Of a DNA stretch of 32,182 nt, positions 12,278 through 31,223 are shown one piece after another (within the stretch, counting starts at the first letter, position 1; each line of letters opens with the position of its first letter). The DNA is taken from the IMG/VR virus record IMGVR_UViG_2870464427_000001. One strand, 5' to 3'. The notes under the pieces were generated by a model. The model was not told the origin of the DNA, made no database searches, and was given only the letters and a program-made list of their open reading frames with translations. The translations under genes and the position numbers were made by a program. This stretch comes from a virus (taxonomy: Duplodnaviria; Heunggongvirae; Uroviricota; Caudoviricetes).

Positions 12278-12859
12278 TTAGCACTCGCCAATTAATCGTA
12301 CATAGGACACCGGCTGACAAGCACCAACAATACCAACACCACCAGAAACATTGGCAGCTTGCGAAAATGTAAATAATGTTCTTGCCGACTTTGCGCTCTT
12401 GATACTTCTTAACGTATCTTCCAACATCTCTTTCGAAGGAACGGCACCATCAAAAGAGTTAATCGAAGCAACAATTGAGGCTGTATATGGTTCGCCAGGT
12501 GGTGATGTTTCAAACCATTCTGTTATGTTTACCTCTCCACCCAAGCTATTTACTACATCTTCAACCGCTGCCCTTGTACCCTTTATTCGCTTTGTTCGTA
12601 TTATTGATTTAAAAACAGAACGCTTTAACGATACAGGCCAACTATCCCTCCATGTATCAGCATTCCATTGCCAGGCTAAATGATCGAGAACAACTGAGTC
12701 CAGGTTATCAACAACGCTATATATTTCTGTCTTATATATTAAATTGTTAATTGCTTGTAGTTCATCATCGATAGCTTTCGACATAGCTATCACGTTGGGA
12801 TCTCTAGCTAAGTTAGGAGGTAAAACATCCAACAAGCTAACATTAAAGATATCAGCCAT
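12278..12859 (-). CDS. baseplate/tail-fibre attachment protein (P2 gpI / Mu gp48-like)
   Basis: 193 aa; LAWQWNADTWRDSWP .. NITEWFETSPPG parallels P2 gpI motifs (LAWAFSVDRWDEKWP .. NVTEWWENSDPPG). Confidence 0.7.
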   Translation of the reverse strand: MADIFNVSLLDVLPPNLARDPNVIAMSKAIDDELQAINNLIYKTEIYSVVDNLDSVVLDHLAWQWNADTWRDSWPVSLKRSVFKSIIRTKRIKGTRAAVEDVVNSLGGEVNITEWFETSPPGEPYTASIVASINSFDGAVPSKEMLEDTLRSIKSAKSARTLFTFSQAANVSGGVGIVGACQPVSYVRLIGEC

Positions 12860-13975
12860 CCTCTAACCCCGCATACTGGCAATTTACATTTCTCTCTCTG
12901 GCGACCTGCGTCTCTCCAACCACAGTAAATACAGGACTTGATATTTCTAATCTTTTAGCCCCGGCATTTTTTAAACGTTGAATAATTTCATCTGGATTTA
13001 TATCTCTTCCCATAACCGAACGTTGCCATTGTTTATACTCATCAATAGCTTTCTCAACCTCACTTTGAATTAATGTTGTTCTGTTTTTGTCCGATGAGTT
13101 AATCCAGTATTTAATTATTATATCGTATTCAATGCTCTCTGGTTTCTTAACAAGAACTTTATCTGTGAATGGTCGAATATTAGTTGCAGAGAGAACGCTA
13201 TTTATCTGCTCCAATAGTTCATCAGAAGGTATATCTCCGTTCTCTAACAAAGAACGGATTTCTACAGTTCCGGGCGATGGTGTATATACATTCACATCTT
13301 TTATATTCTGATTGGCTGTTCTTGTCCAATATTTATAAGAATCCTCCGGCCCTGCTGTAGACAGTTTTTCCGGCGACAGTTTTATTCTTTCAGCATAATT
13401 ATCATCTGACTCTGTATCAGCACCAGAATTAGATGTTGTTAGATTCCTTACGCTGGAAACATACGGCAACGGAGTCACCAACTCATTTATTTGCCCTGGT
13501 AAAAAGCCATTCCCCGATAAACCAGGTATAACAGCATATCCTGAGACTGTACCAACTGTTTTCCCAGCAGGTATTTCCAACAAAACATCTGTTTGGAAAA
13601 TAACACCATTTCCAGTTGAAACTTGAGTGCCAGAAGGTATTGTATATATCCCGATAATTTTGTTGACAGATTAAACTCAAATGTAGTCAAGGCAGATTGA
13701 GCTTCCAGCCTAGGCGTATCCGTCAGATAGCCTATATGATCGAGATATTCACCCCCACCATATGTAAGAAGGTTTTGTTTTGCAGAAAAATCGATAGCTT
13801 TTCTTTGCTGTATAATAATCTCACACAATGACAAGATGAATAATCTACGTGGATCAGCAGGTGCTAATGTTTCACCTGTTATACTCTCAAAAGCCCTGAT
13901 TGAACGAGTTGTTATATCAGTCGGGTTAGAATCTGCGAAAGTAATATCTGGCAAACCACCGCGCGGCAACGTCAT
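12852..13975 (-). pseudogene. baseplate J-like protein (P2 gpJ / Mu gp47-like) interrupted by a single-base frameshift
   Basis: Two overlapping ORFs (13487..13975 and 12852..13583). The upstream frame turns to junk after ..TTFEFNLS while the downstream frame reads good protein from 13670. One extra A in the A4 run (plus-strand T-run 13658-13661) would give one roughly 375-aa protein. Confidence 0.6.
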
Positions 13976-14292
13976 TCTCTAACTCCTATCACAAGTTTTG
14001 GCCTAATAAAACCATCAGAAACGTCCGTTCTTTCAAAAGTAACAGAATGGATAATCGCTCTAGGCTCAAACTCACTAATTTTTTGAATTATTTCTCGTGT
14101 TGCTGTAGCAATAAAAATTGGGCTGGGGCTGTCAACAAGACTTGAATTAACTCCTAATTTTCTGGCATATGGTACAGTGCCAATCTGAGTATTAATAATA
14201 GTAGAGACATTTTGCAAAACTTCTTCTACAACTGTTTTGGGCGACCAATCAATCGAGTAAGAAGGTGATGATATGGTAAACGTATTATTCAT
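13972..14292 (-). CDS. baseplate wedge protein (GPW/gp25-like)
   Basis: 106 aa, position between V-like and J-like genes; start overlaps the upstream gene. Confidence 0.6.
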   Translation of the reverse strand: MNNTFTISSPSYSIDWSPKTVVEEVLQNVSTIINTQIGTVPYARKLGVNSSLVDSPSPIFIATATREIIQKISEFEPRAIIHSVTFERTDVSDGFIRPKLVIGVRE

Positions 14293-14756
14293 AATAATTT
14301 ACCTAACGCACTTCTAGTTTTTGACTCTATATTGCCAGCAATATCAACTAATGCTTCTTTCAGAGAGGTCTGTCCGACTTCCTGTAATTTAATGCCGACG
14401 ATAATCACTCGTGGATTCCCAGTTGGACCGAAATAAGTCCATGATTCCTCTATATCTGTAATTATAAAATTACCAAAATACTGAATACCAATTACAACAG
14501 GATTTACTTCCTGAATTGATTGCATTGTCCTAAGTAATGAAAGCGCAGCCAATGGAACAATGCCAAGTGTTGTATCCAACCGCATATTAAAACTAACTTC
14601 ATCCAGATCTGGACCTATATCCTCCAGAACAGGTTTAAGCCCAATAACATCATGGCGCGCTACACGACGCTTTGACGTCCTTTTAAAATTGTTGAACGTA
14701 TTCACCACTATTGATGAGGCAACAAAAGGCATTGTACCAAGCATACCCACAATCAT
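14289..14756 (-). CDS. hypothetical baseplate-module protein
   Basis: 155-aa ORF with overlapping start and stop inside the baseplate operon. No motif recognised. Confidence 0.5.
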   Translation of the reverse strand: MIVGMLGTMPFVASSIVVNTFNNFKRTSKRRVARHDVIGLKPVLEDIGPDLDEVSFNMRLDTTLGIVPLAALSLLRTMQSIQEVNPVVIGIQYFGNFIITDIEESWTYFGPTGNPRVIIVGIKLQEVGQTSLKEALVDIAGNIESKTRSALGKLL

Positions 14757-15373
14757 GCCTGAGCCTCCGTTGTCGGAGCGTATTCCCCCTGAGCTGTGTG
14801 ATGGTGGCCTTTAGATTTAATCCCATCAACATCTATATCACCACCAACAACCTTAACATCCCCAGAAATTGTAGCTGCAACACCTCCAGCAGAAGATCCT
14901 TTCATTCCACCTTTGAAGGTTAGTAATCCTTCAACTGTAGCATTTCCGGTAATGATGGTTTCTGGAGCATCAATAGTTACGGTTCCTGTAGCCTTAACGG
15001 TTACATCTCCGACAGCATCAACAAGGAGTAAATTAGATTCTCTGTCTACCTCAATACGAGTTCCGTTATTAAATCTAATGACGCGTTTATTAACCGTATT
15101 AGATGGTGGCTTCTGTGTTTCATCATAAAAACTACCAAGAATAAAACCTTGTTGCGGCCCTGCGGGATGAAAGATACACAAAACTTGCTCACCAATATCT
15201 GGCATCCAGTAATCAGCATTCTTATCCGTATTTTTCACAATAACTGATAACTTTGCCGAAGTGACGTTATCCTGATCATCGAAAGTAACTCTTGCTGTAA
15301 CATCACCATCATCAATATCAGAAACAACGCCAACTCTTATAGTCTGACGTAATAATGTTTCTAAATCATTCAT
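14753..15373 (-). CDS. baseplate spike/assembly protein (P2 gpV-like)
   Basis: 206 aa; GEQVLCIF and a C-terminal HHHT motif parallel P2 gpV (GEQVLILA .. HTHKH). Confidence 0.7.
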   Translation of the reverse strand: MNDLETLLRQTIRVGVVSDIDDGDVTARVTFDDQDNVTSAKLSVIVKNTDKNADYWMPDIGEQVLCIFHPAGPQQGFILGSFYDETQKPPSNTVNKRVIRFNNGTRIEVDRESNLLLVDAVGDVTVKATGTVTIDAPETIITGNATVEGLLTFKGGMKGSSAGGVAATISGDVKVVGGDIDVDGIKSKGHHHTAQGEYAPTTEAQA

Positions 15374-15375
15374 AA

Positions 15376-16377
15376 TTAATACCCATTAATTACTCTTCGG
15401 ACATCAATCGAGGTGGTATAACCACTAGCCCCAATTGAATGCACAGCTTTCGATATAAGATATTTTCCAGAAAATGAACCGAATCCGTCCAGATTTATAG
15501 TTACACCAGCTACCAATCTGGTGTCTCCAACCAATACTAAAGATCCTGTATTTTGATATCTATTTTTAAGCCGCAAAGCAGCCTTTGCCTTACGTTTTGC
15601 TTCATCTAAATTAGCTACCAGTTTTCTTATCTTAAGATTCGACCCTTCTTCTACGGATGGATCTACCCAAGTATACGAAAGCGACTTTCTTTTTTTAGGT
15701 ACGCGATATTTGCACGTGCAACTTTTATACAAATCTGTAGATTGTGTGCTAAAGCTATATCTGATTATCTCATCAATACCTAACGTAAGCGTAGCGATAG
15801 GATCTTTTTGCTCAAACATCTCTTGAGCAAATATTATTAATTGGCTATCAGTGACCTTTAACGACAACCCTTCATCCTGGCAAAGTCGATGGAGAAATTT
15901 TAAATCGCTTTCCTCCATTTGATCTTCGCGCGCATAATATGGATTACTATCACCATCAATAAGAAACAACAGTTCAAGGTTAGCTAATTTAGCTATAGAA
16001 GTTGCTATATCTTTAAGAGTTGTTTTTTCCCATGCATTACTTTTTAAATCACGTCTAATGCCTGATGAAACAGGAACAGAAACAGCAGTCACCTCAACAA
16101 CAGAAGGTGGTCCAGAGCAAGTTATGCCATCTACCTGGAATTTCCCGCACTCAAGGACGATTTGATTTATAGGCTTAAAGCTCAAATCAATAAAATCACC
16201 CTTTTTAGGTGTCCAGTCTCCAGACCATTTCCCATCATCATTTTTTAATATAATAGAAATATCATCGACCTGACCATCTTCATTATCTGTATAAGACATT
16301 GACAAAACATCAGGTGACATATGAGCGGTAATATTTACATTCTGATATATAACATCAAAAAGCGTTTTACGTAACAC
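15376..16377 (-). CDS. tail protein D-like (baseplate hub / late control gene D family)
   Basis: 333-aa ORF after the tape measure and X-like genes; assignment by size, position and general resemblance. Confidence 0.6.
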   Translation of the reverse strand: MLRKTLFDVIYQNVNITAHMSPDVLSMSYTDNEDGQVDDISIILKNDDGKWSGDWTPKKGDFIDLSFKPINQIVLECGKFQVDGITCSGPPSVVEVTAVSVPVSSGIRRDLKSNAWEKTTLKDIATSIAKLANLELLFLIDGDSNPYYAREDQMEESDLKFLHRLCQDEGLSLKVTDSQLIIFAQEMFEQKDPIATLTLGIDEIIRYSFSTQSTDLYKSCTCKYRVPKKRKSLSYTWVDPSVEEGSNLKIRKLVANLDEAKRKAKAALRLKNRYQNTGSLVLVGDTRLVAGVTINLDGFGSFSGKYLISKAVHSIGASGYTTSIDVRRVINGY

Positions 16378-16585
16378 TATTGCGTCTCCACGGAGGCAAA
16401 TTGTTTACTGATATTGGCATAACCGGAGCATCAGGAACTTTAAGAATAATTCCCGCAGAAAAAAGCACCGTGAAGCGGTGCTCAGTATTAGCATCAATAA
16501 GAAGATAAGACAGGTACTCATTACCATACAACTTTAACGCGATACTATCCCATGAGTCCCCTTGAACCGTTCTATAATCATCCAA
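16367..16585 (-). CDS. tail protein X-like (LysM-like small tail protein)
   Basis: 72 aa; YRTVQGDSWDSIALKLYG .. ILKVPD pattern resembles P2 gpX. Confidence 0.6.
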   Translation of the reverse strand: MDDYRTVQGDSWDSIALKLYGNEYLSYLLIDANTEHRFTVLFSAGIILKVPDAPVMPISVNNLPPWRRNSVT

Positions 16586-19370
16586 AACTTAATCTCCGTT
16601 GTTGGAACATATGAGCACTCAATTTCTTCTCAAAATCAGAATATCCCGCATCTAATGCTCTTTTAGCTGCCGCCTCAGTTTCCTTTGGTGAACCAGCCGG
16701 AAGATTGATTACAGGTGAATAGGTTATTCCACCAGTCACAGCGTTAACGTTCTGGCGAGGTCCAGAAGTCCCGGCGGCAGATATCCCGTGAGGTGATAAA
16801 TTTGATTGCCCGAACTTGGTTGCTATTGCATTCTGTAAGCTGTTATTCCTGCTAACACCTGATGCCAGAGTAGTCATTATTGCACCACCTGACTTTGTTA
16901 GCTGTGAGAATGGACCTTTTTTCGCGTCAGAGAACGGTAAATACTCACGTACAGAAGAAAAAACGCCTTTCACTTCATTAATTAAAGCATTTGCTTTTGA
17001 TTTTATCCCAGTGATTAACGTCTCAATTATTTTTGCACCTGACTCACTCCAGTTTATTCCAGATAAATAAGCCGTTACAGATTGGAATGCTCTTATAAAG
17101 AGTCCAACTGGTGAAAAACGCATAAAAACAGATACCAGTGTATCTATGATTTTCTTTCCTGTTTCGCTCCAGTTAATGCCAGAAAGGTAATTTGTTGTAA
17201 GTTTAAATGCTTTAATTAAGAACGGAAGCGGAGACATCCATTTAAAAGCACTAATTAATGTACTGTAAATTCTTACTCCTGCCGAACTCCAGTTTATGTT
17301 GGAAAGATAATCCCATGCTTTACCAAACATAGATATAATCCATCCATTGAGGTCAAAGTTTAAGATAAAGTTTTTTATAGCCTCAAATGATTTAACTGTA
17401 TATTCCTTAACAGAAGGCCAAACTCTGACAGCATAATCTCTGATCTTATCCCAATTCTGATAGAGCAATATTCCTGCGGCAACCAGTGCAGATATAGCCA
17501 TCTGAATCCACCCGAAGGGTGTTAGCTTTGTCGCTACAGATAAAGCCAGCATAGCTACCCTACACGCTATAACCACACTTTTCATGGTTAGAAACGCACC
17601 TGCCGCCATCACAATCTGAGACACAAAATTGGGGTTGTTAGCTACAAATTCACTAATTTTTGTAATCAGCGGAACCAAAACACTAAGCGCGGCATTCAAA
17701 GCTGGTTGCAAGGCCTGACCAAAACTTAATGATGCATTGCTAGCCTGAATACGTAATTGTTTCAATCGCTCCGCATTGTCTTTCGTTATGTTGGCAAAAT
17801 CGCGGTCAATAACAGCACTTCCAGCCCCAAGAGATGTTGCTTTGATTCTCTGGTATTCCTTCCAGTTTTGAATCATCGGACGAACAAAGTTCTGAACCTG
17901 CATATCGCCAAATAGCTCACCAAGTAACTTCTGATCTCCGTTCTTAGTCATTTTCATGACAGAATGCATTGCAGCTTCGAATGGATTCTTCCCTTTTTTC
18001 TGCGCTGTTGTGACAATTTTATATAAATCTACACCGAAATTTTTCTTTGCTTTTTTTAGTGTTTCAGGGGAAAGTATTTTCGCCAAAAAGTTGTTCATAT
18101 TATTAGCAGCCTCATCCGAAGTTGCAGCACCTTTGCGAGCTATCTGCAAAGCTGCCCCCATCGTCGCGGCGGCTTCTTTACCTCCCATTTTTAATGCCTG
18201 GAACTGAGCACCAAGCACAGGAAGATTTTTGGCCATATCTTTAAATTCAAAGTTTCCCTCTTTCCCTGCCTGAACCAGAATCCCCATTGCAGACTTCATT
18301 TGAGATGGATCAATCTTCAATGAGTCACTTAATGTAAATGATGCTTTCGAGACATCGAGGATATCAGAGCCAGTAGCTGTAGCTGTTCGCCCAATAGTTA
18401 GTAGATTCGCCTGAGCCTCTTTATAATCCTGCCCAGCAGCGACGAGAAAACCCTGAGCGGCCTGAATATCAGATGCAAACTGGTTGGTGGCTGTTCCGGT
18501 AACAAGCATCGCCTGCCCCATCGCCTGAACTTCTTCCGGCTTCATATCTGCCGTAAGACCAATCATTTTGTTTTCACGATTGAAATTTGCTGCATTGTTA
18601 GCAGCAGCAAATGCACCAGCCGCTACAGCACCAGTTTGTAATCCTGACCTTACAAGTTGACTCTTTGCCTCACCAAGATGCTCTCGCTTCAATTCACGCT
18701 GCCTTTCCAACGCGCGGTTTAACTCCTCCTGAGCACGTTTTACTGCAAGAACATTTTTCCGTGCTTCAGCCAACGCATTTTTATAGCTGTTAATTTTATC
18801 AATACGTTGTTTTTCTAATGCCCGGTTAAGTTCCTCCTGCTGTTTTTTCACTTGCTGAACATTTGCTCTGGCTAAAGCCAAAGCCGTTCTGTAGCGGTTA
18901 ACCTGCTCAACGCTACGGGCCTGAGCCTCACGATTACGATCAATGCTGGCTTTAAGCTCTTTCTCTCTTGAGGCCAAAGCTCTGGCAGATGTATCAGCTC
19001 CCTGATAGGCAGACTTTAAAGCGGCCAGTTCTTCACGCTGAGAACGTAGTGATGCTCGTAAATTCGATGAATGTGTTTTTGCCTTCTCAAAGTCACGAAG
19101 CATCGCTCTGGTTGGATTGGCCGTGTTTTTTATTTGCTTCTGTAACTCTTCAACGCGAGCGGCAGCTTTATGATATTCGAGGGCAGTCTGTCCAACCTTT
19201 ACTTTTACAGATTGTAGCTTTTGAATTTCCCCATGTTCTTTCGTTAATCCAGCAAGCTCGGCATTTAATTTAGCAACAGCCTGATTAGCTGTAGTAAAAC
19301 TTTTGGGGAGAGAGGCGGCAACTTTGCCGCCAATTTCAAAAGCCAGCTTAAAGTTCTTATTGCTGGCCAT
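16578..19370 (-). CDS. tail tape measure protein
   Basis: 930 aa, coiled-coil-rich N-terminus and hydrophobic central segments; lies directly after the E/E' chaperone pair. Confidence 0.85.
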   Translation of the reverse strand: MASNKNFKLAFEIGGKVAASLPKSFTTANQAVAKLNAELAGLTKEHGEIQKLQSVKVKVGQTALEYHKAAARVEELQKQIKNTANPTRAMLRDFEKAKTHSSNLRASLRSQREELAALKSAYQGADTSARALASREKELKASIDRNREAQARSVEQVNRYRTALALARANVQQVKKQQEELNRALEKQRIDKINSYKNALAEARKNVLAVKRAQEELNRALERQRELKREHLGEAKSQLVRSGLQTGAVAAGAFAAANNAANFNRENKMIGLTADMKPEEVQAMGQAMLVTGTATNQFASDIQAAQGFLVAAGQDYKEAQANLLTIGRTATATGSDILDVSKASFTLSDSLKIDPSQMKSAMGILVQAGKEGNFEFKDMAKNLPVLGAQFQALKMGGKEAAATMGAALQIARKGAATSDEAANNMNNFLAKILSPETLKKAKKNFGVDLYKIVTTAQKKGKNPFEAAMHSVMKMTKNGDQKLLGELFGDMQVQNFVRPMIQNWKEYQRIKATSLGAGSAVIDRDFANITKDNAERLKQLRIQASNASLSFGQALQPALNAALSVLVPLITKISEFVANNPNFVSQIVMAAGAFLTMKSVVIACRVAMLALSVATKLTPFGWIQMAISALVAAGILLYQNWDKIRDYAVRVWPSVKEYTVKSFEAIKNFILNFDLNGWIISMFGKAWDYLSNINWSSAGVRIYSTLISAFKWMSPLPFLIKAFKLTTNYLSGINWSETGKKIIDTLVSVFMRFSPVGLFIRAFQSVTAYLSGINWSESGAKIIETLITGIKSKANALINEVKGVFSSVREYLPFSDAKKGPFSQLTKSGGAIMTTLASGVSRNNSLQNAIATKFGQSNLSPHGISAAGTSGPRQNVNAVTGGITYSPVINLPAGSPKETEAAAKRALDAGYSDFEKKLSAHMFQQRRLSFG

Positions 19371-19375
19371 TAGTA

Positions 19376-19806
19376 TTAATCCTCATTAAACACGTCAATC
19401 CATGCGACGATTCGCCTCAACCGAAGCGAAAGCCAGTAGGATATAGGTGTTGATTGAGATGATTGAGATAGAGAACTCGCGGCCCTCATTATTTGCTTAT
19501 CAATAGGTTTTTGCTCATCAAAACCTACGAGAGCAAAAAATTCTGTACCTTTTGACAAACTTTAACAAAGTCTTTCGCTGGTAATCCATTCAGATACTCT
19601 ATTGGACGACCAATACAGCGAGCAGCCAAGGCTGCATGGACTTTATTATCAAGTGATGTTTGAACTGAAACATGCCCTTGAGATTGCAGTAAGTCCGATA
19701 CCTCTAAAATATCACTGCCTTTTAGGTTGTCTAAATCAAGGTTGAGTTCAGTCACCGGTTCAAAGTCTTCAAAACGATATTCTTTACTTAATTTAACGGT
19801 TTCCAT
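19376..19806 (-). CDS. tail assembly chaperone E+E' fusion product (needs a -1 ribosomal frameshift)
   Basis: The ORF at 19376..19558 overlaps the E ORF in the -1 frame; the overlap contains the slippery heptamer TTTTTTG (minus strand; plus-strand caaaaaa at 19534-19540). Confidence 0.6.
19525..19806 (-). CDS. tail assembly chaperone (P2 gpE-like)
   Basis: 93-aa ORF between the tail tube and tape measure genes, ending ..QNFLLS just past the slippery site. Confidence 0.7.
   Translation of the reverse strand: METVKLSKEYRFEDFEPVTELNLDLDNLKGSDILEVSDLLQSQGHVSVQTSLDNKVHAALAARCIGRPIEYLNGLPAKDFVKVCQKVQNFLLS
19534..19540 (-). promoter_or_regulatory. programmed -1 frameshift slippery site (T_TTT_TTG)
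   Basis: Zero-frame codons aaT TTT TTG; the -1 frame continues EFFALVGFDEQ.. to the stop at 19376. Confidence 0.6.
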
Positions 19807-19815
19807 TTTGTCACC

Positions 19816-20337
19816 TTATAAACCTAAATCATCACGAACGCTTTTTAATATATCTTCACCATCAAAGATACAAATAAAGTTCAACTTATCAATTTCCAGG
19901 ACTTCTTTTCCATCAATAAATAATTTGATATAGAGAACTTCAAATTCATTCTCTGAATCAGTAGCCTTTGCCACCTGTAGCGAACCTAAATCCAGTTTTT
20001 TAGGGTTTAGCTTCATTGAAGCCCGAATAGGAACCGTTTTATATTTTCCTGTTCCTGCATCATAAACCTGCTGGCTACCGCGAAAATCTACCTGATGCGA
20101 TGAGGATAGAAATAATTTTGTACCAGCAGAGGTCAGAGTTCGCCATTTAAGAGAGACAGTCATTGGTTTGAAATGCCCCAGCGTTCCGCTCTCAAGCTCT
20201 CCAGCGATACCTGCACCACTAACAGTTTCTGTCATCATCTCAATTGATGGCAGCTTTGCGTCAGCAACACCGATAATACGGTTTCCCTCACCGTATACTG
20301 TAAAGTTAATAAGTCTCTCAGGAATTTGATTGCTCAA
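19816..20337 (-). CDS. tail tube protein (P2 FII-like)
   Basis: 173 aa; C-terminal DGKEVLEIDKLN .. DGEDIL resembles P2 FII (DGKELVEIDTIN..). Confidence 0.85.
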   Translation of the reverse strand: MSNQIPERLINFTVYGEGNRIIGVADAKLPSIEMMTETVSGAGIAGELESGTLGHFKPMTVSLKWRTLTSAGTKLFLSSSHQVDFRGSQQVYDAGTGKYKTVPIRASMKLNPKKLDLGSLQVAKATDSENEFEVLYIKLFIDGKEVLEIDKLNFICIFDGEDILKSVRDDLGL

Positions 20338-20353
20338 AGCAACCTCCTATTAT

Positions 20354-21817
20354 TTATTCAGAAAACAAGTTCAGCAGATAATCAGGATTATATTCCATGA
20401 CGAACTCAATATCTCTGGCAGGTGAGAATGGTGTCATTTTTACATGGAATTTAACAATCCCGTCCATTAATGACGTAATCGTGTTTTCAGACTGATCAAA
20501 GGTAACAACACCACCTGCAATATCCTGATTACCTGTGAGGCCGTTAAGCCAAATATTCGCACTTGTAACAATCGATTCAATTAATCGACGGTTTGCAGGA
20601 TTGTCTATTTTTGACCAATGCGAAAGAATTAACGTATTACCCACCCAGTTAAACATACGTCGGCAAACACGAAATGCGTCTTTGGGGTCTGTAGATGTTG
20701 GATAAATAGCATTACGGTTTCCCCATGATTTCCAACCATCAAAATTAAGGCTTGTTACAATCCCCTGTCCATTTAAGTAGTTTGCCTGGCTAATGTTAAG
20801 CCATACTTCACTGCCATCTTTACGTACAGCACCGTCCATCTGTAGTTTTATATTTGACGGAGAACGTGATGGAATATCACCATACTGACTATCCAGCAAG
20901 CATGTTGCGGCCGCTAAATGGGTTGAGTGATGGTAAATATTGTCACCAAGTTTCACCATCGGCCAGCACACTGTCTGGTTAGCGGCCATGTGATTATTGT
21001 TCTGTTTCCATTCAGGAACAGCCGAGTAATCACTGATAGTAGATTTATCGGTCGGCGCATCCGTTATAGCTTCTGCTTTGAACAATTCACTAATCAGCGC
21101 GGCTTTAGCCGCCATTAGCTGACCAACTTCACTATCAGAACTAAATCCAGGTGCAATCACTTGTCCAGGAACTAACTTGAAGCGGGGATACACATCTGAC
21201 AGTAACTCAAGCCCTGTATTGGCTTTAGTGTTGGAATCCACACCACCGATAATGTCATTTTTAGTTACGGCACCGGGATCAAGATGCGTATAACTAACCT
21301 TAAGAGTAGCGTCTTTTTCGGTAATTTTTCCTCCGCTAATAGCGGTAATGACCGTATAGCCATTATCATCCAGCGCCAGCACATAATCGGTATCAAGCGT
21401 TAACCCAGGCGAATCACCATCTGCTTTTTTCACAACAACAGATTTATATAAGACACCATCGTTAGAGAGCGTACCTTTCCCGCCAGAAAGTTTTACTAAC
21501 TCATCAGTAACGTCTTTCTTATGCTTTGCTGGATCAAGCACATTGATAAATACAACTGGCGCAACACCATATATTCCAAATGCGACTTTAATTACTTCGC
21601 TTAAAGTATATTTCTCGAAGTTTGTGCTATATCCTATTTTAGATACGGCCTCTGCGTATGTATAAGCAATGATAGGTTTATTTACCGCTGAGGCTGGATC
21701 TTCTAACTGATTAACAGGAGCCGTACCAAATGCGACAATCAACCCAGCACTAACTTGCACTGGAGGAGTTATAGATGTAGCCAGTTCAGATATATAAATA
21801 CCGTGGCGATATCCCAT
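20354..21817 (-). CDS. contractile tail sheath protein (P2 FI-like)
   Basis: 487 aa; N-terminal GYRHGIYISE and internal GWKSWGNRN parallel P2 FI (DYHHGVQVLE, GFRFWGNRT). Confidence 0.85.
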   Translation of the reverse strand: MGYRHGIYISELATSITPPVQVSAGLIVAFGTAPVNQLEDPASAVNKPIIAYTYAEAVSKIGYSTNFEKYTLSEVIKVAFGIYGVAPVVFINVLDPAKHKKDVTDELVKLSGGKGTLSNDGVLYKSVVVKKADGDSPGLTLDTDYVLALDDNGYTVITAISGGKITEKDATLKVSYTHLDPGAVTKNDIIGGVDSNTKANTGLELLSDVYPRFKLVPGQVIAPGFSSDSEVGQLMAAKAALISELFKAEAITDAPTDKSTISDYSAVPEWKQNNNHMAANQTVCWPMVKLGDNIYHHSTHLAAATCLLDSQYGDIPSRSPSNIKLQMDGAVRKDGSEVWLNISQANYLNGQGIVTSLNFDGWKSWGNRNAIYPTSTDPKDAFRVCRRMFNWVGNTLILSHWSKIDNPANRRLIESIVTSANIWLNGLTGNQDIAGGVVTFDQSENTITSLMDGIVKFHVKMTPFSPARDIEFVMEYNPDYLLNLFSE

Positions 21818-22107
21818 TATTTAATCTCCATGATAGAAGAAGAAACTCTAGAGTACATTACATACTCGACACTGGTTTTATCAGAAAGTCTTTTCTCTGC
21901 ATCTGCAAAATCACTGGTTGCCACAAACAAACACTTTGCACCAGGAATATGTGATATTAATTTTTTACACTCTGGAGATAAGCCATTCTTAAATAGTTTA
22001 TGCTTCAAAATTGAGAGTTGAGGGATTGTTGGTCCTATATATACAAATGTTTGAGCAACATCTTCCTTCTTTTCTATATCTTCTTTACTACTTTTCTTAT
22101 TAGCCAT
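21817..22107 (-). CDS. hypothetical protein
   Basis: 96-aa ORF whose stop overlaps the sheath start. Confidence 0.4.
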   Translation of the reverse strand: MANKKSSKEDIEKKEDVAQTFVYIGPTIPQLSILKHKLFKNGLSPECKKLISHIPGAKCLFVATSDFADAEKRLSDKTSVEYVMYSRVSSSIMEIK

Positions 22108-22593
22108 TTAGATAAACTCCTGAGACTGAATATTCTGAGGCTTTAATACTATCCACGTTCCAGTTGCTTCCGTTATCCAATATGGATACGGTTGATCATC
22201 AAACATTCGCCATCTGATATCGCCCTGAAAGAGAAATTTCTCTTCAAGTAAAGGCTTCTCCTGAAAATGAAACATCATCCTTTCAAGAAGAGCCATTACC
22301 CATTCATATCCAGTATGGTCCTCACAAAAACCACCTAGAAGAAACTTAACCTTAACTTCATCCGTTTCAGGCTGCATTCCTCCTTCCGTGGGCCTGATAA
22401 TCACATGAGGAAATTCTGGCGGTTTATCTGGAGATGGTTGTGATTTAGGAGGCAAGTACCCTTTAAATATTGTTGGAACAAACAATTTAATATCGCTGTC
22501 TGTTTCATCATAAGGAGGTCCCTGCACTAATAAATCATGGAAAACCTCATGTTCCAACCGATTTTTTATTGCATCTATCAAAAGATTAATCAA
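22108..22593 (-). CDS. hypothetical protein (neck/tail-completion position)
   Basis: 161-aa ORF between head-completion and tail genes. Confidence 0.5.
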   Translation of the reverse strand: MINLLIDAIKNRLEHEVFHDLLVQGPPYDETDSDIKLFVPTIFKGYLPPKSQPSPDKPPEFPHVIIRPTEGGMQPETDEVKVKFLLGGFCEDHTGYEWVMALLERMMFHFQEKPLLEEKFLFQGDIRWRMFDDQPYPYWITEATGTWIVLKPQNIQSQEFI

Positions 22594-22934
22594 ATCGGCA
22601 TTCCTCTGTTAGTATTAACAGTGAGAGTTATTTCCAATACACCAACATTATCTGATACTTCATCAACAATATAATTTTTACCGTTGATTTTCATTGACTG
22701 GTCTTTGACAGGGAGAACAGGAAAATCTTTTCTTGAAACAAATAATATTATTTGCCCCTGATTTATTCCCTCTGCAAACTCAGCATATGAGCGTTTATTC
22801 CGCTCATGAATAAGGTCTGTATCAATAACGGCAAGAATATCCTTGCCGTCTATGTTATATGTATCGGCAAACTCTTTTTCATTGAGGAATATTGCAGAAA
22901 TATCTTGCGCTATAACCTCTTTGAAGGAGTTCAT
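22590..22934 (-). CDS. head-tail joining protein (lambda FII-like by position and pattern)
   Basis: 114 aa, overlapping starts and stops with neighbours; weak resemblance to gpFII. Confidence 0.45.
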   Translation of the reverse strand: MNSFKEVIAQDISAIFLNEKEFADTYNIDGKDILAVIDTDLIHERNKRSYAEFAEGINQGQIILFVSRKDFPVLPVKDQSMKINGKNYIVDEVSDNVGVLEITLTVNTNRGMPI

Positions 22935-23326
22935 TACTTCTTATTACCTTTCTTTTGCGTTGATTTTTTCGCATTACTGGTATCAGAAGTAGCTACAGAT
23001 TCAGATGAATCATCAGCAACCATTTCCTCATTGCCGCCATCATCCTCAAACTCAACCTCGAATACACAGCTACCCGCCTCCGTTCGCGTAATCAACCCCG
23101 CGTCCACAGCATCATTAACAGCAGATGCGTATCCATGCTCAAAAGCTAACTTAGCAGCATCATAGCCCCCAGCCGATGCCAAATCACCATCCTCTTCGGT
23201 GGCAATAGCATGTCCTGACGCAATCAGTTCGGCAATTCTGGAGTTATCCATTAGCCCATTAAGCAAACGGCCCGCTTTTAGCGAGCCGTGGCTTATCGTA
23301 TCAATGTTTTTAATCAGTCTGGCCAT
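22934..23326 (-). CDS. hypothetical head-completion protein (acidic C-terminus)
   Basis: 130-aa ORF immediately after the major capsid gene. Confidence 0.5.
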   Translation of the reverse strand: MARLIKNIDTISHGSLKAGRLLNGLMDNSRIAELIASGHAIATEEDGDLASAGGYDAAKLAFEHGYASAVNDAVDAGLITRTEAGSCVFEVEFEDDGGNEEMVADDSSESVATSDTSNAKKSTQKKGNKK

Positions 23327-24370
23327 TTAAACCACCTTAGCCACCAGATAGGCATCAGCCACACCAGGATTAGGCAGTGGAGATGACTTCATGGCAACAT
23401 AACGGCCAGCCGGCTTACGAGTTACCCAGGTGTCTGGAACTCGTGGTGACTCAACAATCGTTAGAGTCTTTTCGGCGTCATCTACAAGCTCTACAGCACC
23501 ATACAGCATCGTTCCTCGACCAGGAGAGCCAAAGAGGATCTTATCTTCCGGTACTAATGGTTCTGGTTTTCCTGTTTTATCATTGCGAATAAGTTCGTCG
23601 TAACCATAAAAATCGACACCTTCAAGATTGCCATAATGAGTTACGCCTTCTTCTAACTCCTTAGGCTCAATATACCCAAGCTCTTTTCGGCGATTATCAA
23701 GATATTTAGTTACTGCTTCATTTTTAACGAAAGCATCAACAACTTTTGCGCCCATTACGGCAACACGAGGTGTAAAACCTGAAGTTAGTGATACCCGACG
23801 TTTCCAGTTGCGAACATTGACCAACGGATCTGATTTTGCTGCACTCCATAAATCATCACCTGTCAGTTCAAGATATGGTTTATCTCCTTCCTCTTCAGGC
23901 CAAAAATAAACTGTGTCATCCACACCTTCACCAACAATATCAACCTGCCCCGTAAACAAGACTTGTGCACACATCCATTCTTCACGGCGATTAACCATTT
24001 CATCAAGCTCAAGCAAATCTTTACCTAATTGCTCGGCAGCTCGTTCTGCTGGCGATTTTGCGTTGTAAATATTCTCACCCGGAAGCCTGTTTAAAAGCAT
24101 CTCTGCTGTTGTTACCAAATCAGGTGCAACAAGTGGTGGCTCCAGAGTTCTCGTTACAAAGCCGCGTCGCTCAACGGTTTTTGAGCCAAAACCTTTACCA
24201 ACAAACGGAGCCATAGTACGGCCACCGCGAACAAAATCCAGATCAACTTTCTTTGTATTAAAGGTCTGAACACCAGGAAAAAAGGTACGAAGAAGAAAAC
24301 GACGAGCCTTGAAATTCTGAATAACAGGCTCAAGCATTGTACGTCGTTCAAAAATATCAATATTCGGCAT
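23327..24370 (-). CDS. major capsid protein (lambda E family)
   Basis: 347 aa, size and position as for lambda gpE, downstream of protease and decoration genes. Confidence 0.8.
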   Translation of the reverse strand: MPNIDIFERRTMLEPVIQNFKARRFLLRTFFPGVQTFNTKKVDLDFVRGGRTMAPFVGKGFGSKTVERRGFVTRTLEPPLVAPDLVTTAEMLLNRLPGENIYNAKSPAERAAEQLGKDLLELDEMVNRREEWMCAQVLFTGQVDIVGEGVDDTVYFWPEEEGDKPYLELTGDDLWSAAKSDPLVNVRNWKRRVSLTSGFTPRVAVMGAKVVDAFVKNEAVTKYLDNRRKELGYIEPKELEEGVTHYGNLEGVDFYGYDELIRNDKTGKPEPLVPEDKILFGSPGRGTMLYGAVELVDDAEKTLTIVESPRVPDTWVTRKPAGRYVAMKSSPLPNPGVADAYLVAKVV

Positions 24371-24390
24371 AAAAATACGACCTCTTTATA

Positions 24391-24774
24391 TTATGCAGAT
24401 GGATTTTGTTGTGCGGTGTTAAGGAATATCCCAACCTTCCGGCAAGCCAGATATACATCGGCAATCTTTGCTGATTCAGGAAGGATAACCGCATGTGCAT
24501 TGAACATTCCGGTCAGCCATGCTGTTCCAACTTGCGCTGAATCAGTCGCATCAATACTGTGTTGAGCGATACAATACGGTTCTTTTGCCACCCCCTCACC
24601 AGAGAGATTTATTGGTGCTACAGTGACAACATTTGTTGTCTGATCAATACTGACAAAAGCAAGCAACTCACCTCGATTTACTTTACCGCTGGCAAGTTTA
24701 ATACTTGTTGTAATTGCTGGCATACCACCAGAAATAATCAGATTATCTGGTTCAAATGAAAAAGACTCTCGCAT
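24391..24774 (-). CDS. putative head decoration protein (gpD-like position)
   Basis: 127-aa ORF between the protease/scaffold and capsid genes; weak pattern resemblance only. Confidence 0.45.
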   Translation of the reverse strand: MRESFSFEPDNLIISGGMPAITTSIKLASGKVNRGELLAFVSIDQTTNVVTVAPINLSGEGVAKEPYCIAQHSIDATDSAQVGTAWLTGMFNAHAVILPESAKIADVYLACRKVGIFLNTAQQNPSA

Positions 24775-24783
24775 AAACTCACC

Positions 24784-25872
24784 TTAATTTTTATCGCGGT
24801 TTTTAAATACTGACCCAATAACATTTTTTACTACTTCAGCTTGTTTATCGCCGTTGTTTTCTGGTTGATTAACATCAACTGAATCATTCACCTCATTTGC
24901 GTCTTCTTGCCGTTGATTAAGAAAGTTTTTGTTACGCGCTCGCTCTGCATTCATAATTTCCAAAGCAAGTTCAGCCGCAGAAACTCCCGTTTTGAATTTT
25001 GCATTCTTAACCAGGTCGTCATGACCTGGAATCACGCTATTCTCGATTGTTTCAATGCGCTCACGTTCTGATTTAACGCCCTCGTCTTTACCAGCATTAA
25101 AAACCTGATTGTATAATTCTGGATGTTTATTTTTTAATTCATCAAGAGTCACAACATCGTCCTCGGTTTGTTCATTTAATTCAGTAGATAATTCATTTTT
25201 ATTTTGTGGCAACTTTGCGAGCGAATCAGGTAATTTTGAAAACCTTGATGCTTCAAAAGTTATTCCATTGAGCGAAAGCATCCCTTCCTTTATAGAAGCG
25301 GATAAACGCATTGGTTTTTCAACTTCGTCAGCAAACCCAAGCTCAACAGCTTCTTCTGCATTTAGCCAAGTTTCCTGATCCATTAGTTCAATTAACTTAT
25401 CTTCAGAAAGTCCTGTCTTCTCCTTATATGCAGATAAAATACTATTTCGTATCTTATCCATCATCTCAGCAATATCACGCAATTCATCCGCATCCCCCAT
25501 TGCCCATGTCCACGGATTATGTATCATCATCATAGCATTAGATGGGATAACAACTTTATCACCTGCCATTGCAATAATGGTTGCAGCCGATGCAGCAATA
25601 CCATCAATATAAACTGTAATATTAGCCTTATGACGTTTTAATGAAGAAAGAATAGCTTGAGCTGTAAAAACAGAACCACCATAACTATTAATTTTTACGT
25701 TGATAGCATTCGATGAAATATCCTTTAACTTATTAACTATGTCAGAAGAAGAAACCTCATCAAATTCACCAATATACCCGTATATTAAAAGCTCAGCCGG
25801 AGTGTCATCTTCACCCGTGCTATTTTTTATTTCCCACCAATTAGGCATCATCAGTCTCCATATTTTGTTCAT
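24784..25872 (-). CDS. prohead maturation protease (ClpP/S49-like) with C-terminal scaffold-like region
   Basis: 362 aa; protease core pattern (YGYIGEFDEVSSSD .. NSYGGSVFTAQAI .. IDGIAASAATIIAMAGDK .. MMMIHNPW) and coiled-coil acidic C-terminus. Start is uncertain (ATGs at 25872, 25851 and 25848); overlaps the portal stop. Confidence 0.75.
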   Translation of the reverse strand: MNKIWRLMMPNWWEIKNSTGEDDTPAELLIYGYIGEFDEVSSSDIVNKLKDISSNAINVKINSYGGSVFTAQAILSSLKRHKANITVYIDGIAASAATIIAMAGDKVVIPSNAMMMIHNPWTWAMGDADELRDIAEMMDKIRNSILSAYKEKTGLSEDKLIELMDQETWLNAEEAVELGFADEVEKPMRLSASIKEGMLSLNGITFEASRFSKLPDSLAKLPQNKNELSTELNEQTEDDVVTLDELKNKHPELYNQVFNAGKDEGVKSERERIETIENSVIPGHDDLVKNAKFKTGVSAAELALEIMNAERARNKNFLNQRQEDANEVNDSVDVNQPENNGDKQAEVVKNVIGSVFKNRDKN

Positions 25873-27415
25873 TTACCTCAGAAACAGGAGGATTAATAAG
25901 CCCCAACTCACGGCGAGCATTCTCTTCTCTGCCACAAATTTGTGCGGTTTCTTCCCAGTTAAGACCTGACATTTCAGCCGCTTCCTTTTCACGGGTAGAG
26001 AATGTTTCCTCAACACGCAGTTTTGCAGCTTTGACTTCTTTAAGGGGATCTAATTGGCCTTGTGATGGGCCATACCATTGAGCGCCACTCCATGCAGCGC
26101 GATATTCAGGCCCATAAAAAAAACCAGGGGCAATAACACGACCTTTAGCCACGGCTTCGGCCAACCATTCCTCATAGATCGGTTGGCAAAATGACTGAAC
26201 CATCCAGTCACGTCGCATACGGAACATTTTCCAGGCTTCAAGTAATGCGGCCCTGCTTGCGCTATAACTTGCTGTAAAATGCTTTACCAAGAGTTCGTAA
26301 GGGAGTTCTAAAGCAGCCCCAATTTGACGGCATATGGCGACAACAAAACCATCAAATGCCGTATTTGGTCGCCCGGGATTTGCTGTATCTATCGACTCAC
26401 CTTCACCCAAACTTACTATGGAGCCATTCCCCATTTCTTGGGTGTTATCATCATGGTTATCGATCTGCTCGTACTGAGGGATACCCGATTCACCGACTGG
26501 TCCATCAGGAGCCTCTGTTTTAATAAAGACAGTAAACATCCCTGACACAACCGCAGCAACCAATTCAGCATCGGTGTATCGTCCTAACTGCTTCAATGCT
26601 TCAATTACAGGAGCAAGGACAGGAACGCCACGGCGTTGCCCAGGCCTTTCAAAATCCTGCATGACATGCAGAATATTTCTTCTTCCTGTTTTACTCCCAT
26701 ATGCGGGAATACGTTCCCACTTGCGGGTTACAAAACCAGAAGTCCCGGCTGGGTGATGTTTTGCAACCCAGTACGCCACAGGCTCGCTAAATTCACCAAC
26801 CTCTACGCCACCGTAAAGATTTGGTATAAAACGATCCTCTGGATTGCAAACACGATCACCTTCAATTAAATAGACGCACAAATCATATATAACACCCTTA
26901 CGCTTAATAACTGGTAGCGCAGCAAATATATCGCCAGATGTTAACGCAGATATTTGGACCAATGATTGCAATTGTCCAAAAGTACACATTCTTGATGCAT
27001 CACAATTTGGAGAATCAGCCCATAATCTAAACTCACGCTCAACATGCTTTTCCCATGCTCGCGCTTCTTCCTGCGTCATCCCCAAGAAATCGGCATCAAT
27101 GTTCGCATTTAGTTTTAAACCGGAACCAACAACGTTTGTCCTGATAGTTTTTATTGCGCCAACCGATAGCGGGTTTCCCATGAAGAGATCACGAGAACGC
27201 TCACGCAATTTATCTATATTTTTAACAATATCATCATCAGGAGAACCAGCTTTACTAAACCAACCCCTTAATGATTTTTTATGAGTGCTTGCACCATGAC
27301 GTGAATATCCAAGGTTATTAATACCTTCAAGTGCCTCTAACCGTTTTCTTGCCAAAGCTCGATTTAATGCCCTCTGAGGTGAAAACGGCGCAATAACTCG
27401 ATCAAGAATATTCAT
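25841..27415 (-). CDS. portal protein (lambda B family)
   Basis: 524 aa, between the gpW-like and protease genes; size and position as for lambda gpB. Confidence 0.85.
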   Translation of the reverse strand: MNILDRVIAPFSPQRALNRALARKRLEALEGINNLGYSRHGASTHKKSLRGWFSKAGSPDDDIVKNIDKLRERSRDLFMGNPLSVGAIKTIRTNVVGSGLKLNANIDADFLGMTQEEARAWEKHVEREFRLWADSPNCDASRMCTFGQLQSLVQISALTSGDIFAALPVIKRKGVIYDLCVYLIEGDRVCNPEDRFIPNLYGGVEVGEFSEPVAYWVAKHHPAGTSGFVTRKWERIPAYGSKTGRRNILHVMQDFERPGQRRGVPVLAPVIEALKQLGRYTDAELVAAVVSGMFTVFIKTEAPDGPVGESGIPQYEQIDNHDDNTQEMGNGSIVSLGEGESIDTANPGRPNTAFDGFVVAICRQIGAALELPYELLVKHFTASYSASRAALLEAWKMFRMRRDWMVQSFCQPIYEEWLAEAVAKGRVIAPGFFYGPEYRAAWSGAQWYGPSQGQLDPLKEVKAAKLRVEETFSTREKEAAEMSGLNWEETAQICGREENARRELGLINPPVSEVNEQNMETDDA

Positions 27416-27651
27416 AAATCTCTTATCACCACTCGTTTAATTCGTGGGCTTCGGCGTATACCTGCTGATAATCTTTCTACTTCATTACGCCAGTAATCCA
27501 TCTCTTTTCTGACTTCTGATAAATCCGCACGAGTTAACTGCCGCGTACCAAATTTATATGACTGACCGCCAATAGCAATAGCGCGATATGCTTCCCGCCA
27601 GACAGATAACATCTCTCTGGCTTCAGTCAGAGAAAATGCTTCATTGTTCAT
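27412..27651 (-). CDS. head-tail joining protein (lambda gpW-like)
   Basis: 79 aa between terminase and portal; pattern resembles lambda W. Confidence 0.6.
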   Translation of the reverse strand: MNNEAFSLTEAREMLSVWREAYRAIAIGGQSYKFGTRQLTRADLSEVRKEMDYWRNEVERLSAGIRRSPRIKRVVIRDL

Positions 27652-27662
27652 TTATATTTCCT

Positions 27663-29518
27663 CTATATGGTTACGCCTTTACTTATAACTCTACGGCGTC
27701 TTCTACGTATACCTGACGAGTTCTGCACATACACATTACCTCGCATTTCCTGTTCGGCAAGCCAGTTAAAATTAGGGTTCAGAATTTCCATCGCGGCAGT
27801 TGCATAGTTACGGCAATCAAGAGGCTCGTTACGCTCGTAGACTTTCACCCACTTTTCTTTTGTCTGCCCATTTTTATATTCAAATATTTTTTTCTCTGAT
27901 AATAATCCTTTAAAGTATTCGGTATCATATCCTCTGTCAGAATCTAATGGGAAATGCATATAACCAGGACCAGGATCATGTAGTTTAATTCTTGCCATGA
28001 TGGTCCCTTTACCATCATCAACCCCAAATTAAACAACATAGCCCCCACACGGTTATTATTACTTGGCTTTCCTATAAATGGTAAACCTACCCCACCACGC
28101 CCCCTGATAGAGTATATTCGCCTTGATTCTCTCGGCTTAGTAAAGCGATATACCTCTGTCGTAAAATGCCCACCAGAGTCAATACAAACGGAAGAAATCT
28201 GTAATTTTCGACCGTCACGGAATGACCAGCTACGGAGTAAGTATTCATCAAGTTGTTTCCAGACAACATCTTGTGCGGGATCACCTGGGAATATTTTATA
28301 TTCTATCCCCCATGACTCCTTACCTTTTCCCCAACCGACCAATTCACAAACTAAATACGTGTCCTGTACGTCAACACCAGCACTTAACAATAAAACATCA
28401 TCTGGTAAAAACTCTTCAAACCTTATTCTGCGTTGCAACAAGTATTCAGGATCGATATCGTCTTTAGCATCCTCTTTCCATGGCTCACCCAGCTTAAGGT
28501 TAATAAACTCCATTAATCCATTTTTATCGCGGTTTCTGGTTGCTTCCGTAAATTCTTCAACCAGCTCTGACAATGCAACCCACGGGGAGTAAAGACTGTT
28601 AATATGAAAACCAACAATACCTTTAACTCCAGTATGTTCAGCTATCCATACCCCCTTCGCCAACCAATCAACGTCTGGTTTACCAGATCCGCGCATAATC
28701 CCGCCGCACTCACAGCACTCATATCTGGCCGTTTCCGGTAACGCCTCACCTGAATCGCTCTTATCCCATCTGACTTGCGACCATTTCATCACCTGCATGG
28801 TGCCACAACATGGGCAAGGAACATGGTAGTAACGCTGATCGGAGAGCTTAAACCACTTGTGGATTTTGCTCGTTTCCTCCAAAACAGGAGTAGAAACAAA
28901 AACTTTCTTACGATTATGAAAGTTGGTAGTACGCTGAATACCTAGTTTTAGTGGGTCGCCCTCCTGCGTCACACCGTAACGATCAATCTCATCAGCTAAC
29001 AGTATTCGAATTGGCCTGGATGCAAGACCTGCTGGGGAATTAGCACCAACAAGTGCTATATATCCACCAGCGTAATGCTTCATACGTATAGTCGTGCTGG
29101 ACTTTTTGGCTGCACCGCGCCCCTCTTTCCCTTCATGCAGCTTGTGTTTCAAACCTGGGGAATATTTGAACGTCGGATCAATACGCTCTTTTGAAAAAGC
29201 CTCAGCCGCCTCTACCGTTGGATAAATCATCAACTGAGGAGATGGCTCCTGATCTGCAAAGTAACCCATAACATTTAGCTGTAATTCGGATTTACCAATT
29301 TGCGAGCTACATTGCATCACTACTGTTTCTGTATCAGCGTCACCAATAACATCCATTGGTTCACGCAAATATGGCACTCGGCTTGTACGCCACGGCCCTG
29401 GCTCTGGAGACGTTCCCGGCGCTACATGACGATACTTATCAGCCCATTCGGAAACAGTTAGCCGTGATTTAGGGCGAAGCGCACGGAAAAAAGCGGTGCT
29501 CCATACTGTTTCGCCCAT
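27663..29518 (-). pseudogene. terminase large subunit (lambda gpA family) split by a single-base frameshift
   Basis: ORFs 27944..29518 and 27663..27998 overlap. The first frame turns to junk after ..SNNNRVGAMLFNLG and the second reads ..VDDGKGTIMARIKLHDPGPGYMHFP. One extra G in the G4 run (plus-strand C-run 28022-28025) would give one roughly 619-aa protein. Confidence 0.75.
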
Positions 29519-29523
29519 GAGGT

Positions 29524-30075
29524 TTATTCTTCCTGCTTAATAAATCGGGATTCCTGGAGCGCCTGAAGCGCAAAATTAATCTCGTCTTCAATAATGCGTT
29601 CGATCTCCCTGGCTGTTTTGCCTTCACAACGGGGAGCTGCTCTTGGAGCAATACTAAATAAGCGGCTACGCAATTCATTAGCTGCCAGAAATGCATCATC
29701 CCTGACCGCATCTTTAGCGATGAGAGAGCCTTCCTTTTCTTCAAATTCAAGGCGTTTCAGCTTTGCCTGATAAATTTTTTCTGCAGTCTTAGCCTTGTTG
29801 AATTGCACCGCAACACCGGAAGTACCACCAGCTAATCCGGCATCATCAGCGGGTAACTCTGGTTGTTCCGAAGATATCCCATGCCCTCTTTTTCCGTTTT
29901 CAGCAGATACCTCACGACCAACCTGTCGGCTCGCTTCATAAGCCGCACTAGCTTTATCAAAATCCAGCTTGCCGCTTTTCAGCACTGGAATGCGACCGGA
30001 ACGACAGAGCTTCGTAACCATTGCCGGAGAAATACCTTTCCGGCGGGCAAACTCTGACTTACTGACGATGGCCAT
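29524..30075 (-). CDS. terminase small subunit (Nu1-like, N-terminal HTH)
   Basis: 183 aa from the ATG at 30075, overlapping the ParB-like stop as TAATG; HTH-like segment EFARRKGISPAMVTKLCRSGRIPV. Confidence 0.65.
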   Translation of the reverse strand: MAIVSKSEFARRKGISPAMVTKLCRSGRIPVLKSGKLDFDKASAAYEASRQVGREVSAENGKRGHGISSEQPELPADDAGLAGGTSGVAVQFNKAKTAEKIYQAKLKRLEFEEKEGSLIAKDAVRDDAFLAANELRSRLFSIAPRAAPRCEGKTAREIERIIEDEINFALQALQESRFIKQEE

Positions 30076-30665
30076 TACTTGCAACCATTAGCAAGATACT
30101 GAACAAATCCCTCATGCGTTTCATGCGCGTCGTGGTACTGACGATAAACATCCAGCAACAATGCAATTTCCATATCCGTCGCGGGAATACGTTCTTTATC
30201 AATAGCCAGGTACTTAATTTGAACAACAGGGGAAGAATTATCGTCTTCTTCCTGCGGCTGTTCATCGCTTAACATTTCGTCAAGCTCTGCATCATTAAAC
30301 CCAAGCAGATCAATATCAAAATCATCATCCATTAACTCTTTGACTTCTTCGGCCAGAAGCTGCATATCCCAGCCAGCATTTAAGGCCAGCTTGTTATCTG
30401 CAATCCTGTAAGCCTTCTTCTGTTTTTCAGAAAGGTTACTCAACCGAATCGCCGGAACTTTATCCATTTCCAGAATTTCGGCTGCTGCAAGCCGCCCATG
30501 CCCCGCAATCAGTTCATTCTTTTCATCGATCAGCACAGGATTAGTGAAACCGAACTCACGGATACTGTTCACCAACTGTTCAACCTGCTCATCTGAATGA
30601 GTCCGTGAATTTTTGGCGTATCTGAGCAGCTTACCGACTGGTAAATATTCGATTTTTAGAGCCAT
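30075..30665 (-). CDS. ParB-like nuclease domain protein (ParB/Srx N-terminal fold)
   Basis: 196 aa; YLPVGKLLRYAKNSRTHSDEQVEQLVNSIREFGFTNPVLID .. LIAGHGRLAAA matches the ParB N-terminal domain pattern; acidic C-terminus. Confidence 0.75.
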   Translation of the reverse strand: MALKIEYLPVGKLLRYAKNSRTHSDEQVEQLVNSIREFGFTNPVLIDEKNELIAGHGRLAAAEILEMDKVPAIRLSNLSEKQKKAYRIADNKLALNAGWDMQLLAEEVKELMDDDFDIDLLGFNDAELDEMLSDEQPQEEDDNSSPVVQIKYLAIDKERIPATDMEIALLLDVYRQYHDAHETHEGFVQYLANGCK

Positions 30666-31030
30666 TTTTTAACCGCCATAACACAACAGGTTAAAGAAAA
30701 CTGTTTAACTTATTGATACTAAAAGAGAAAAATGACGATCTTTTTACTCATAAAAAAATCACACAAACCAGCATAATCATCTGATTTTATTAAGTTTTTA
30801 TAAGTAAAAAGGATCTTGCAATGGTGTTTTGGTTAAAAGATTGGATGTATTTGCATGATTTATAACGATTTTTATCAAAACAGCCTTACATTGGTTAAAG
30901 ATCTGCGCGTATCTTGATGATCTAAAAGAAAATTCTCTACTTTCTTTTCACCATCACAAGCACAGCAAAAAATCACGTTTTCCCGATATTTTTCAATGAG
31001 ATGAGTAAATTTCTTTTACCGCAACTTTTA
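30666..31030. promoter_or_regulatory. AT-rich intergenic region with clustered GATC sites upstream of the packaging operon
   Basis: About 365 bp with no credible ORF; GATC at 30737, 30812, 30900 and 30919. Position is compatible with a late promoter and/or a packaging-recognition site. Confidence 0.35.
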
Positions 31031-31223
31031 ACCTAACTTTTTTCACGTTTAGCTAGCCGAACATCGGGGTTCGAATGACCCGCATCCAACGCTTTTGGCC
31101 AGAAGGACCCAATTCTGCCGGACGATGAAACGATGCTCGTGCCCACCCACAGACAGCCAGTGAGCAACGCTACAGAACACAGTGAATACACCCTGCATAA
31201 CAACACCATCAACCACACGATGG

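Follow-up and report, generated by a model that had tools for sequence, protein, structure and literature searches.

Is a large terminase gene that reads through in two frames a sign that a phage-plasmid has lost the ability to package its DNA, or only a sign that one base was lost on the way from the molecule to the database? The question is posed by the 32,182-nt stretch analysed here in full (the window, IMG/VR record IMGVR_UViG_2870464427_000001), whose source is a ~48-kb E. coli myovirus phage-plasmid. Its family, to which the 48.5-kb plasmid of E. coli ATCC 25922 also belongs, consists of circular E. coli plasmids of ~47–50 kb that carry a whole module of myovirus structural genes. The head genes of the module encode the large terminase (TerL), DUF6148, a lambda-type portal, a ClpP-like protease and the decoration and capsid proteins; the tail genes encode the sheath, tube, tape measure, gpD/V/W/J/I-like baseplate proteins, tail fibres and a Hin-type invertase; and the plasmid functions comprise RepA (IncFII_repA), ParA, several ParB-like proteins and a RelE/ParE toxin-antitoxin pair. 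Five relatives were deposited as phage genomes (Yersinia phages vB_YpM_39/41/44 and Escherichia phages vB_EcoM-613R2/473R2), and from these deposits we infer that intact family members are able to form virions. Two elements considered as kin were dropped as unrelated: pSLy3 is a 114-kb SSU5-supergroup element and Yersinia phage HQ103 a 32-kb Peduovirus. The window also carries a Hin/Cin-type serine invertase (7345–7899) adjoining alternative tail-fibre C-termini in opposite orientation and two tail-fibre assembly genes; 7345–9968 is an invertible host-range segment. The same segment in NZ_AP022814.1 (L004) is full of indels and PGAP pseudogene calls, which is probably a mixed-orientation assembly problem.

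The terminase gene lies on the minus strand and is divided as follows:

27944..29518, minus strand: upstream TerL open reading frame of 524 aa, from the ORF listing
27663..27998, minus strand: downstream TerL open reading frame of 111 aa, from the ORF listing
28022..28025, minus strand: TerL frameshift site, a C4 run on the plus strand (G4 on the coding strand); the run is five bases long in clean relatives

The two frames differ and overlap by 55 nt. The 524-aa ORF spans the ATPase domain and most of the nuclease domain: Pfam places the full GpA_ATPase profile (PF05876, positions 1–247, 4.9e-76) at residues 37–291 and positions 1–207 of the GpA_nuclease profile (PF20454) in this same ORF (29518..27944), with profile positions 219–290 in the second ORF (27998..27663), which encodes the C-terminal part of the nuclease domain. 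Because the domain pieces are spread over both ORFs, this is one gene that has been split and not two chance ORFs. The nuclease profile is complete in neither frame and becomes whole only when one G is added. The plus strand at 28015–28032 reads TCATCAACCCCAAATTAA, which places the C4 run exactly at 28022–28025. The coding strand here reads ...aat ttg ggg ttg atg atg gta aag..., and insertion of one G there gives a 1857-nt ORF of 618 aa reading ...N L G V D D G K G T I M A R I K L.... The 524-aa ORF follows the true frame through G499 and then runs over 25 out-of-frame codons to its stop, and the true frame resumes at 28021, upstream of the first ATG of the 111-aa ORF. The ORF listing, the Pfam matches and the effect of the inserted base all bear out the original prediction of a gpA-like terminase split by a single-base frameshift at this run; that one extra base would restore the gene is likewise correct, the expected length of roughly 619 aa needing a change to 618.

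The restored gene is that of an intact lineage. Its protein matches WP_001406385.1, the TerL encoded by E. coli plasmid pZ0117EC0148-4, at 100% identity, and its DNA has one difference from that plasmid's gene, which is synonymous. Intact TerL of the same lineage (WP_001406385.1 or WP_024227016.1) is found in pZ0117EC0148-4, pHN68-3, the ATCC 25922 plasmid and vB_YpM_39/41/44, with 99.8–99.9% DNA identity across the gene and an identical protein once the window's copy is restored. The order of the neighbours is also shared (ParB/Srx-like gene, 183-aa ORF, TerL, DUF6148, lambda-type portal, ClpP-like protease). In the window TerL is directly followed by DUF6148, a lambda-family portal (PF05136, 5.6e-101), the ClpP-like protease and the capsid genes. 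What sets the window apart from this lineage is that it is one G short in the G5 run, and this puts the gene into two frames.

How damaging would such a break be? Like lambda gpA-type large terminases, the window's terminase has both Pfam domains (PF05876 and PF20454) in the expected order, whereas, unlike in these enzymes, the last third of its nuclease domain falls out of frame. Alignment A1, of 35 homologues (55–90% identity), shows conservation of the Walker-type residues K76, S77, D176 and E177 and of the acidic nuclease residues. Beyond the shift point at G499, D501 is nearly invariant and G503, K504, G517, H522, F536, E542, W557, K559, R563, N564, E565, D568 and Y572 are invariant. An AlphaFold2 model was made on P0001, a full-length homologue 89% identical to the window TerL (pLDDT 82). 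It has a two-domain terminase fold with an RNase H-like nuclease, and Foldseek matched it with probability 1.0 to the D6E, T4 gp17 and HK97 terminases and to the SPP1 and G20c nuclease domains; at the sequence level the restored TerL matched no PDB chain. In this model a beta strand (495–499) is followed by a helix (500–511) within the C-terminal domain, and the shift point falls between these two elements of the nuclease fold. By analogy with RNase H-like nucleases, the acidic residue at the start of the helix may serve as a metal ligand. A 524-aa product, if real, would then keep its ATPase domain and lose the integrity of the nuclease and the C-terminus, with no DNA maturation or packaging expected, and the position of the shift in both alignment and model suggests that the truncation would be disabling. 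Among the homologues, P0097 and P0117 are gpA-type terminases of about 1015–1024 aa with LAGLIDADG_3 (PF14528), which suggests intein or homing-endonuclease insertions in TerL.

It could also be that the gene truly has four Gs and that ribosomes reach full-length TerL by slipping back one base (−1) on U_UUG_GGG, polymerase slippage being a second possible route. The 0-frame text aat ttg ggg ttg does form a formal X_XXY_YYZ heptamer (U_UUG_GGG, 28028–28022 on the coding strand), and a −1 slip on it yields exactly the ancestral ...NLGVDDGKG... and an intact protein. Nevertheless, we regard recoding as highly improbable. The two-frame layout is not conserved, TerL being a single 1857-nt ORF in every clean relative, and the 87 nt downstream do not form a stimulatory structure (MFE −18.9 kcal/mol against a shuffle mean of −18.45, z = −0.13). 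A run of four Gs is too short for efficient transcriptional slippage. In E. coli the background of frameshifting without a stimulator is about 0.05% and most motifs reach only 2–10 times that, U_UU.G_GG.G not being among the motifs with more than 0.1% shifting without a stimulator and thus being a weak one (Sharma et al., 2014; PMC4066793). The resemblance to the −1 frameshifts of tail chaperones (lambda G/GT, P2 E/E') is confined to the X_XXY_YYZ heptamer and the overlapping frames; the TerL split occurs in this record only, in contrast to the T_TTT_TTG of the chaperone, which is conserved in all relatives. The window has its own site of the latter kind:

19540-19534, minus strand: slippery heptamer T_TTT_TTG of the tail assembly chaperone, with ORFs 19806..19525 and 19558..19376

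This heptamer lies where the 93-aa tail assembly chaperone gene ends; a −1 extension of that gene reaches the tape measure gene, and the site is a conserved programmed frameshift of the P2 E/E' (lambda G/GT) type.

Is the four-G run found elsewhere? A 69-nt query centred on the frameshift site was run against several collections. In the complete E. coli genomes the site is present in 70 records at 95–99% identity, none of them exact, and 69 of these span 70 nt, that is, they carry the extra base. The lone exception lies at the error-ridden end of NZ_CP032086.1, where the match covers 69 nt with a single mismatch; it is an indel-ridden second copy in a misassembled dimer. The extra base is present in all 57 PLSDB plasmids, all five phage genomes from INPHARED (vB_YpM_39/41/44 included) span one base beyond the query, and with a pattern allowing either G4 or G5 the run is G5 in each of four IMG/VR contigs and eleven metagenome contigs; the GTDB representative genomes gave no match to the site. 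All fetched loci taken together, 44 have G5 and two have G4 (L002 and L020), both of the latter being indel-ridden, so that a clean G4 allele was not found among about 145 relatives. Among 153 billion gene positions no record matches exactly either the 524-aa TerL or the 162-aa baseplate fragment (see below). Two apparent parallels did not hold up. The 111-aa C-terminal ORF is called separately on six contigs, none of which is a clean G4 allele, the calls being traceable to contig ends, to a stretch of Ns (L021, whose run is G5) or, in L020, to a noisy assembly. Also, P0003 (526 aa, 99% identical), considered as a second truncated allele, keeps the normal frame through the site and ends differently (…GPGYYYLAFL) on a 2.7-kb contig.

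The two assemblies that do have four Gs are instructive in themselves. L002 comes from the end of a linear 94-kb assembly in which the ATCC 25922 plasmid is apparently present as a dimer, with 12 gap openings in 4.1 kb and PGAP notes calling the terminase and the portal 'frameshifted', and four other assemblies of the same strain have the extra base at the TerL site. In L020 (GCA_949768915.1) TerL is broken into four pieces, with 22 gap openings over 6.4 kb. Single-base deletions make up about 90% of the indels across both assemblies. Since G4 recurs in just these noisy assemblies, the TerL run is demonstrably prone to undercalling. In the 21-kb module only 11 G/C runs reach five bases, this one included, and none exceeds that length.

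The terminase is not the only broken gene. The original prediction had overlooked a second frameshift at 13650–13652, which is the most informative additional fact about this stretch:

12852..13975, minus strand: baseplate J/gp47 gene, 374 aa and unbroken in relatives; one added G repairs it here
13650..13652, minus strand: baseplate J frameshift, C3 on the plus strand against C4 in relatives

The missing base splits baseplate J/gp47 into ORFs 13975..13487 and 13583..12852, and the restored protein of 374 aa has one amino-acid difference from WP_024227022.1. C4 is found at this site in each of the 27 fetched loci and throughout the 69 E. coli records. There is no slippery motif at the break (TTA TCG GGA TAT), so a lesion of this kind could not be rescued by recoding. 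The TerL and baseplate J frameshifts are the only two lesions in the window, all other structural genes being full length. In one relative (L029, NZ_CP172338.1, 2309–3475) the annotation makes the baseplate assembly gene 1167 nt, longer by 42 nt, with a 52-nt overlap with the gpI-like gene, which may reflect a C-terminal frame change in that record.

The close relatives allow indels to be weighed against substitutions. Over 10894–32182 the window aligns to pHN68-3 (L003) and JE86-ST02_p3 (L004) at 99.6–99.7% identity with only three gaps (13652, 28025 and 30758), each of one base in a mononucleotide run. Exact-protein look-ups with the tape measure, tail fibre and capsid proteins reached closer relatives in draft genomes and in assemblies of read sets; across the 22 places they returned, TerL is always called with 618 aa and baseplate J with 374 aa. 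The nearest relative, L049 (GCA_008463925.1), covers window 13328–31142 (17.8 kb) with two substitutions (14424 and 22836), and its gaps are exactly the missing TerL and baseplate J bases. L043 (GCA_002464115.1) covers 1–22246 with 12 substitutions and gaps at 2206 and 13652. Once shared alleles are removed, the private events in the structural module come down to about one substitution (22836, synonymous) and two frameshifting deletions. Private indels equal or outnumber private substitutions, even if they number only 2–3 in 32 kb. In mutation-accumulation studies the indel-to-substitution ratio of spontaneous E. coli mutation is roughly 1:10, and the clean relatives show 0 indels against pHN68-3 over 5–21 kb despite up to 200 substitutions. 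The private excess being so far from this ratio, and the clean kin having no indels, undercalls fit better than evolution.

Three intergenic runs complete the list of length differences. The 30758 gap is in the run 30752–30758 upstream of the ParB/Srx-like gene, which is A7 in the window and A6 in all 69 complete-genome records; it was considered as a third private indel and rejected as such, since A7 is common to the two nearest relatives, L048 and L049, and is therefore a genuine polymorphism and a lineage marker. At 4898–4902 the window has T5 against T6 in most relatives, and this candidate was likewise set aside as two E. coli records have the same T5 (e.g. NZ_CP098182.1). At 2201–2206 the window has C6, against C7 in L003, L004, L043 and three E. 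coli records.

The original prediction offered two ways of reading the split, a sequencing or assembly error and a real inactivation of packaging. Both survive testing, and the comparison with relatives favours the former. Real inactivation would mean that replication slippage removed, very recently, one G from the G5 run of TerL and one from the G4 run of baseplate J, which we consider unlikely. The 524-aa product would then be without D501, G503, K504 and about 15 further invariant nuclease residues, concatemers would not be cut nor packaging completed, the baseplate would be unable to assemble, and the element would persist only as a plasmid via RepA, ParA/ParB and the RelE/ParE toxin-antitoxin pair. 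The sequence as it stands does contain the lesion, assembly looks sound over the rest of the window, homopolymer slippage is the standard natural route to such lesions (at G/C runs it is the commonest natural mechanism of frameshifting), and a second hit is plausible because one dead structural gene relaxes selection on the others. Genuine loss of packaging genes also occurs in relatives: IS1203, of the IS3 family, interrupts TerL in NZ_CP173475.1 (16468–19782), and the defective relative pGF31-D is a 39-kb deletion derivative. Against this stand two independent frameshifts where only about two substitutions separate the window from its nearest relative, the absence of downstream decay in either gene, and an allele that is found in none of about 145 relatives while the same site is miscalled in two noisy assemblies.

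The split is most probably a homopolymer undercall in the assembly, as far as a technical cause can be read from the sequence. One G of the coding-strand G5 run of TerL would have been undercalled in sequencing or assembly, and one G of the baseplate J G4 run likewise. We favour this because the G4 allele is private, its other copies being only in indel-ridden assemblies; because baseplate J is broken by another lesion of this type; because both genes are otherwise pristine, with TerL at 100% and baseplate J one residue off after restoration; and because L049 is otherwise only two substitutions away in 17.8 kb. The indel lies inside a mononucleotide run and is absent from independent assemblies of near-identical DNA. 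In a transmissible phage, selection would purge frameshifts in terminase and baseplate genes. The private single-base deletion in such a run is what is seen in the homopolymer errors of long-read or flow-based assemblies (PGAP 'frameshifted'); in contrast to such error-prone assemblies, the indel density of the window is low and its long A/T runs are correct, with none miscalled among 28 of length 6, four of length 7 and one of length 8 in the module. These runs count against the artefact, as many platforms with homopolymer errors fail there first.

What the finding means depends on which of the two holds, and either way nothing new is involved. Should both breaks be real, the plasmid would be unable to form infectious particles, and we would be looking at a phage-plasmid in its first steps towards a pure plasmid, with a trace of TerL rescue by −1 slippage possible; this picture we think improbable. 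Packaging and baseplate would have been lost by slippage in short G runs, with replication, partition and toxin-antitoxin functions intact, adding one more case to the well-known loss of virion production via homopolymer frameshifts, with no new mechanism. If, as we consider probable, the bases were undercalled, the importance is mainly one of annotation hygiene: at face value the element would be scored as defective and its terminase as a pseudogene, and surveys of how phage-plasmids decay would miscount it. The element itself would then have an intact 618-aa gpA-type large terminase and would be an ordinary ~48-kb E. coli myovirus phage-plasmid, probably a viable one.
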